Below, piece after piece: positions 1,286-1,308 of a DNA stretch of 64,000 nucleotides. The position numbers and the translations under genes are program-made. The DNA is from Escherichia coli. Its GTDB lineage: Bacteria > Pseudomonadota > Gammaproteobacteria > Enterobacterales > Enterobacteriaceae. The stretch lies in the NCBI RefSeq assembly GCF_003334315.1, contig NZ_QOWR01000018.1. One strand, given 5' to 3'. Under the pieces are notes generated by a model, which was not told where the DNA came from, made no database searches, and saw only the letters and a list, made by a program, of their open reading frames with translations. Position 1 is the first letter of the stretch, and each line of letters starts with the position of its first letter.

Positions 1286-1308
1286 ACTTTAGTTACAACA
1301 TCCTTAAT
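1286..1308 (-). other. TerB-like replication terminus (Ter) site in the tus promoter region
   Basis: ACTTTAGTTACAACATCCTTAAT is the reverse complement of the Ter core GTTGTAACTAAAGT, 11 bp upstream of the tus start. Confidence 0.75.

Follow-up and report, generated by a model that had tools for sequence, protein, structure and literature searches.

A common natural allele of TerB, with an intact Tus-binding core and a cognate Tus, in the rstB–tus spacer of an Escherichia coli contig

Does the Ter-like sequence that lies beside tus in this Escherichia coli DNA, here called the window and analysed over its whole length of 64,000 nucleotides, represent TerB, and do the bases by which it departs from the K-12 site affect its working? 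An earlier note, made from the letters of the window, had reported a Ter core on the minus strand next to tus, and the reading of 1286–1308 confirmed this. The plus strand there is ACTTTAGTTACAACATCCTTAAT, of which the reverse complement is ATTAAGGATGTTGTAACTAAAGT, and the GTTGTAACTAAAGT quoted in the note is present inside the site, at 1286–1299. Ter positions were numbered so that position n has the window coordinate 1309-n, so that position 1 (1308) is the non-permissive, blocking end and position 23 (1286) the permissive one. The coordinates of the features are collected in Table 1.

Table 1. Coordinates of TerB, its neighbouring features and two Ter-like sequences in the window
Feature	Coordinates	Strand	Remark
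TerB, 23-bp Tus-binding site ATTAAGGATGTTGTAACTAAAGT	1286..1308	-	ortholog position; 21/23 match to K-12 TerB
Conserved Ter core, positions 5–19, AGGATGTTGTAACTA	1290..1304	-	from cross-species alignment
tus, DNA replication terminus site-binding protein, 309 aa	346..1275	-	308/309 identity to PDB Tus
rstB, sensor kinase	1351..2652	-	upstream of tus, same strand
Putative extended -10 of the tus promoter, TGcTATAAA	1308..1316	-	predicted, read from the sequence
Putative -35, TGGTCA	1331..1336	-	predicted, as above; 4/6 matches, 17 nt upstream of -10
Probable Shine-Dalgarno of tus, GTGG	1284..1287	-	overlaps Ter positions 22–23; 8 nt to ATG
Ter-like CGTACAGATGTTGTAACCATTGT	25,698..25,720	+	A6, C18, one core mismatch; ynfE region
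Ter-like CTGCGTGATGTTGTAACGATCAA	55,012..55,034	-	T6, G18, one core mismatch

Tus-dependent Ter sites of the TerA–J type share a core, GTTGTAACTA, at positions 10–19, which is preceded by A8 and T9 (A9 in some sites). The window site carries the whole stretch of positions 8–19, ATGTTGTAACTA, in the form found in both K-12 TerB and K-12 TerC. It also has the G-C pair at position 6 that provides C6 for the lock: the lock cytosine is the plus-strand C at 1303, which pairs with the minus-strand G of Ter position 6. The earlier note had named changes at C6 or at other Tus-contact positions as what would speak against a Ter site; none were found, G6/C6 and positions 8–19 being intact. Of the TerA–J sequences used as references for these comparisons, those of TerB and TerC were confirmed in a K-12 genome.

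The place of the site is that specific to TerB. It lies inside the 75-bp rstB–tus intergenic region, directly before the tus start codon and on the tus strand, and this region aligned column for column with that of K-12. Between Ter position 23 (1286) and the tus ATG (1275–1273, minus strand) there are 10 bases, so the distance of 11 bp given in the earlier note is the offset between the two, in agreement with the '10 bp region' of the literature (PMC8707476). K-12 TerB likewise occupies the rstB–tus spacer, 10 nt from the ATG and in the same strand and orientation relative to tus, and its spacer flanks are 97% identical to those of the window. The rstB gene ends with its stop codon 42 nt upstream of Ter position 1; on the tus strand, rstA lies beyond rstB upstream and the 3′ end of fumC downstream of tus, and the ORF is annotated as tus in matching genomes. 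When 301 bp spanning the site were used as a query, 5,424 of the 5,426 complete E. coli genomes gave a match, in every case at tus/rstB; identity was 100% in E. coli CP53, the closest complete-genome relative of the window. These results support the assignment to TerB, as a positional orthologue in the rstB–tus spacer that is gapless to K-12.

An intact cognate Tus is encoded in the same genome. Its sequence differed from the Tus chain of PDB entries 1ECR, 2EWJ, 2I05 and 2I06 by I23A as the sole difference (E = 8e-208; Table 1). Residue 23 (codon at window 1209–1207) is Ala here vs. Ile in the crystallised K-12 protein, and CP53 and the window have identical DNA over the stretch with tus codon 23, so CP53 has the same Ala variant.

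A chance match without function can be dismissed. When the window was scanned for K-12 TerB with up to three mismatches, 1286–1308 was the single place found in the 64 kb, and none of 100 dinucleotide-preserving shuffles of the window gave a match within that limit. Moreover, the site is found at the orthologous position in the 5,424 E. coli genomes and, as shown below, in 80 of 80 other species. Consistently, the exact 10-bp core has a single copy in the window, at TerB. Core matches with one mismatch were found at 9187, 25707, 55016 and 61075, all without G6; together with TerB they make five core matches vs. 2.4 expected, a number reached in 8 of 100 shuffles. These four matches were rejected as Ter sites, on the grounds that they lack G6 and that their number is not above chance. 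The two Ter-like sequences of Table 1, CGTACAGATGTTGTAACCATTGT and CTGCGTGATGTTGTAACGATCAA, could not form the lock, because they have no C6. A repeat search of 1200–1420 was also run for the Ter site, and no repeats involving it were found in that interval.

To what extent each position of the site is constrained was read from a cross-species footprint. GTDB species representatives were scanned with the Tus protein, giving 80 loci with Tus identities from 99% down to 69%, in Escherichia, Citrobacter, Salmonella, Enterobacter, Klebsiella, Raoultella, Kosakonia, Kluyvera and other genera of the Enterobacteriaceae. The 8-mer GTTGTAAC occurred exactly once per locus (both strands, ~3.9 kb) in all 80, vs. 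a random expectation of ~9 copies in the 309 kb examined. It was always on the tus coding strand, 6–27 nt before the start codon, and at 6–10 nt in 75 of these loci. In the other five (L023, L069, L076, L082 and L085, from Intestinirhabdus and Kluyvera) Ter lies 18–27 nt away from the tblastn-inferred start of tus, a spacing that may reflect either another true start codon or a truly longer leader.

The tus-upstream sequences of these 80 species (79 unique) were then compared position by position. Positions 5, 6, 8, 9, 18 and 19 were invariant; positions 10–17 served as the alignment anchor, and as their invariance is by construction it was kept out of the evidence. Position 7 was T in 73, G in 4 and C in 2 of the 79 sequences, position 20 was A in 71, C in 7 and T in 1, and positions 1–4, 21–23 and beyond carried at most 1 bit of information, mostly far below. 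All strongly constrained positions are intact in the window, and both positions at which it is substituted relative to K-12 are among the free ones. The footprint thus gives an in silico picture of the selection on Ter, with positions 5, 6 and 8–19 fixed and position 7 and the outer positions free, in agreement with published biochemistry.

The two or three differences from K-12 TerB given in the earlier note came to exactly two in the comparison with the genome of K-12 strain RP437. TerB of this strain reads AATAAGTATGTTGTAACTAAAGT, and the window site differs from it by A2T and T7G, with positions 1, 3–6 and 8–23 equal. The spacer of the window was further aligned, without gaps, with those of K-12 RP437, CP53, O157:H7 strain 2159 and two divergent strains. 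CP53 and O157:H7 strain 2159 carry the window allele, and the two divergent strains read AATAAGGATG at the start of the site. Compared with K-12, the window spacer has a few further substitutions, among them one in the putative promoter spacer, where a C replaces the G of K-12; the spacer polymorphisms that set the window apart from K-12 are natural ones, common to O157:H7, CP53 and ~1,300 complete genomes.

The alleles were counted in the 5,426 complete E. coli genomes with 34-mers, in which a mismatch at position 2 or 7 destroys the 28-base seed required by megablast. The window allele (ATTAAGGATG at positions 1–10) was found in 1,309 genomes, O157:H7 included; 2,349 genomes carry the K-12 allele (AATAAGTATG at positions 1–10) and 1,373 the AATAAGG allele (AATAAGGATG), which leaves ~395 of the 5,426 genomes over. 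G7 is therefore roughly as frequent as the T7 of K-12 and is present in about half of the complete E. coli genomes. These results showed that the window version (T2, G7) is a common natural allele, carried by about a quarter of the complete genomes. Beyond correct annotation the site has little importance, and the analysis adds distribution figures for the three main TerB alleles.

Since position 7 lies inside the stretch usually termed the core, the two substitutions might be thought to impair Tus binding or lock formation, so that the site would be a degenerate or pseudo-Ter. Such a loss is extremely unlikely, as the allele is carried by about a quarter and G7 by about half of the complete E. 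coli genomes, G7 is also present in K-12 TerC, the main termination site, and every species-invariant position is intact. Furthermore, position 7 makes no base-specific contact with Tus, and the outer positions, including 2, are uncontacted (PMC8347550). Variation among E. coli phylogroups is concentrated at positions 1–5, 19–23 and 'the variable position 7' (Goodall et al., PMC8347550), and that paper describes position 7 and positions 1–5 as tolerated, non-contact positions, for position 7 at second hand. The tolerance of position 7 is also backed by G7 in K-12 TerC and by the species alignment. The primary mutagenesis study is that of Coskun-Ari and Hill, of 1997. To judge from these comparisons, both base changes are probably at positions without importance for Tus binding.

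Two other kinds of known site could be set beside the window TerB. K-12 TerC, ATATAGGATGTTGTAACTAATAT in the RP437 genome, has the same polarity as K-12 TerB and is like the window site in A1, T2, A5, G6 and G7, positions 5–20 being equal in the two. Unlike the window TerB, TerC is located away from tus, its locus being that between yneE and uxaB; the two sites differ at positions 3, 4, 21 and 22. The 'vicinal' Ter sites of other Enterobacterales (Toft et al. 2021, PMC8707476) are single Ter sites that precede the tus start codon by a few bases, on the strand of tus, and they share with the window site the conserved G6 and 12-bp core; among genera they differ at positions 1–4 and 20–23 and in their spacing, which is mostly 6–10 nt and 18–27 nt in the five loci mentioned above.

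The relation of the site to the expression of tus was examined in the spacer. On the tus strand the spacer could be read as ...TGGTCA-(17 nt)-TGcTATAAA followed directly by TTAAGGATG..., in which the last A of the putative -10 is Ter position 1 (1308). The tus transcription start, ~7 nt past the -10, would then be near Ter positions 7–9. The TG and the TAnnnA of the -10 showed moderate cross-species conservation (positions -7 to +1), and of the 79 species sequences 59 have G at Ter position 24 and 55 at position 25, two residues that together with positions 22–23 make up the probable GTGG Shine-Dalgarno element. A consensus scan of 1150–1500 for sigma-70 promoters returned none, the scanner demanding that the hexamer end in T. 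In K-12, terB lies inside the tus promoter and mediates autoregulation (PMC8707476, PMC8347550). The window site overlaps a plausible extended -10 and the probable ribosome-binding site of tus, an arrangement that would fit this published operator role. As the site extends from the last base of the putative -10 to the probable ribosome-binding site, bound Tus would occlude promoter and start, so that tus would repress itself.

Transcription from rstB was also considered. Terminator prediction gave no intrinsic terminator in the interval from rstB to Ter, the one weak terminator-like hairpin in 1150–1500 being inside rstB, and folding of the spacer RNA gave no structure beyond chance (z = +0.99); in view of this z value, a riboswitch, an attenuator or an rstB terminator was not proposed. 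Because neither a terminator nor significant RNA structure was found between rstB and the site, read-through from rstB is possible, and it would possibly meet the blocking face of the Tus–Ter complex.

Position 7 adjoins the C6 lock base and lies about at the putative tus transcription start, and for this reason G7 could shift the autoregulatory set-point of tus or the kinetics of lock formation. If the T2/G7 allele were non-neutral in this way, lineages would differ in Tus levels or in the tightness of the fork trap. We consider such non-neutrality unlikely; no result obtained here points to an effect of G7 or T2, and G7 in TerC argues against a large one.

The polarity of the site was assessed from its orientation and from GC skew. 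The blocking face of TerB is toward higher window coordinates. The GC skew of the plus strand was positive throughout the window, the cumulative skew rising from 0.03 to 0.91, so that the plus strand is the leading strand of a fork moving from low to high coordinates, although the skew is a record of history that may differ from the current arrangement. This indicates the K-12 polarity, in which high-to-low forks are blocked and the oriC-derived fork meets the permissive face; the gene order, which is as in E. coli CP53 and K-12, fits it as well. For the present orientation relative to oriC and dif we rely on inference, since neither of them nor any other Ter site falls within the window, which moreover carries an IS1 end at 1–123.

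The dual role of fork arrest and autoregulation that the earlier note took as known is established for K-12 TerB (PMC8707476, PMC8347550), and for the window site it may be transferred by orthology and anatomy. Both the observation and the interpretation of that note are supported, and the site is an already known one, an ordinary TerB in its expected place. We consider it very likely that this TerB, as the common T2/G7 allele, works as a Tus-bound polar fork barrier and in the self-repression of tus. In detail, Tus encoded directly downstream would bind the 23-bp site, which is asymmetric. A replisome coming in from the position-1 end would unwind the DNA as far as the G-C(6) pair, upon which the freed C6 (plus-strand 1303) would flip into a pocket of Tus, locking the complex and halting the fork. 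The fork so blocked would be the one that runs toward lower coordinates and corresponds to the clockwise fork of K-12 after its escape from TerC, while a fork from the position-23 end would displace Tus and pass. Sequence identity, orthologous position, intact core and Tus, and cross-species conservation are direct observations on this locus; Tus binding, lock formation, fork arrest and repression would follow from orthology, the K-12 literature and the anatomy of the site. The genome keeps an intact TerB–tus module, and the fork trap is thus probably functional on the TerB side.

A different weighting of the two roles would be that the site serves essentially as the tus operator and that forks in the blocking orientation are rarely or never met, either because TerC stops nearly all of them or because of an IS1-mediated rearrangement. 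TerB is indeed second-line behind TerC in K-12, yet significant pausing at TerB has been reported there (PMC8707476). Rearranged fork traps are known from Shigella (PMC8347550), and an IS1 end interrupts fumC 1.16 kb from the site, at a junction absent from the 5,426 complete E. coli genomes; against a rearranged trap, the GC skew of all 64 kb has the K-12 polarity and the window is collinear with CP53 over at least 39 kb. In addition, C6 is invariant in the 80 species, which the operator role alone does not obviously require. A site used essentially as an operator is therefore very unlikely, and the difference would be one of the frequency of use, not of the kind of site. TerB as a Tus-bound polar fork barrier with self-repression of tus remains the preferred reading, and no observation spoke against it.

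Several further observations were made along the window. It opens inside an IS1 copy (1–123), whose terminal inverted repeat GGTAATGACTCCAACTTACTGAT lies at 101–123 on the minus strand, on the permissive side of TerB. The IS1 adjoins a fumC remnant at 121–349, comprising the last ~75 codons of the interrupted gene, and may mark a rearrangement breakpoint 1.16 kb from TerB. The collinearity with CP53 is at 99.9–100% identity, which makes the source an E. coli or Shigella chromosome; given that no complete E. coli genome has the IS1/fumC junction, it may be a Shigella or an unsampled clone. A lambdoid prophage extends from ~32,800 to at least 39,446 and probably to ~52,000, beside rspB at the position of K-12 Qin; by collinearity with CP53 it contains an integrase, an excisionase, an exonuclease, ydfD and dicB, and the GC content between 32 and 52 kb is 0.40–0.46. 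Two insertions of CP53 are absent from the window, namely an IS5 near tqsA (window ~11,627–11,650) and a 7.8-kb island with an integrase, IS3 and hypothetical genes (window ~26,053–26,069), which splits ynfE in CP53; the ynfE of the window appears intact.
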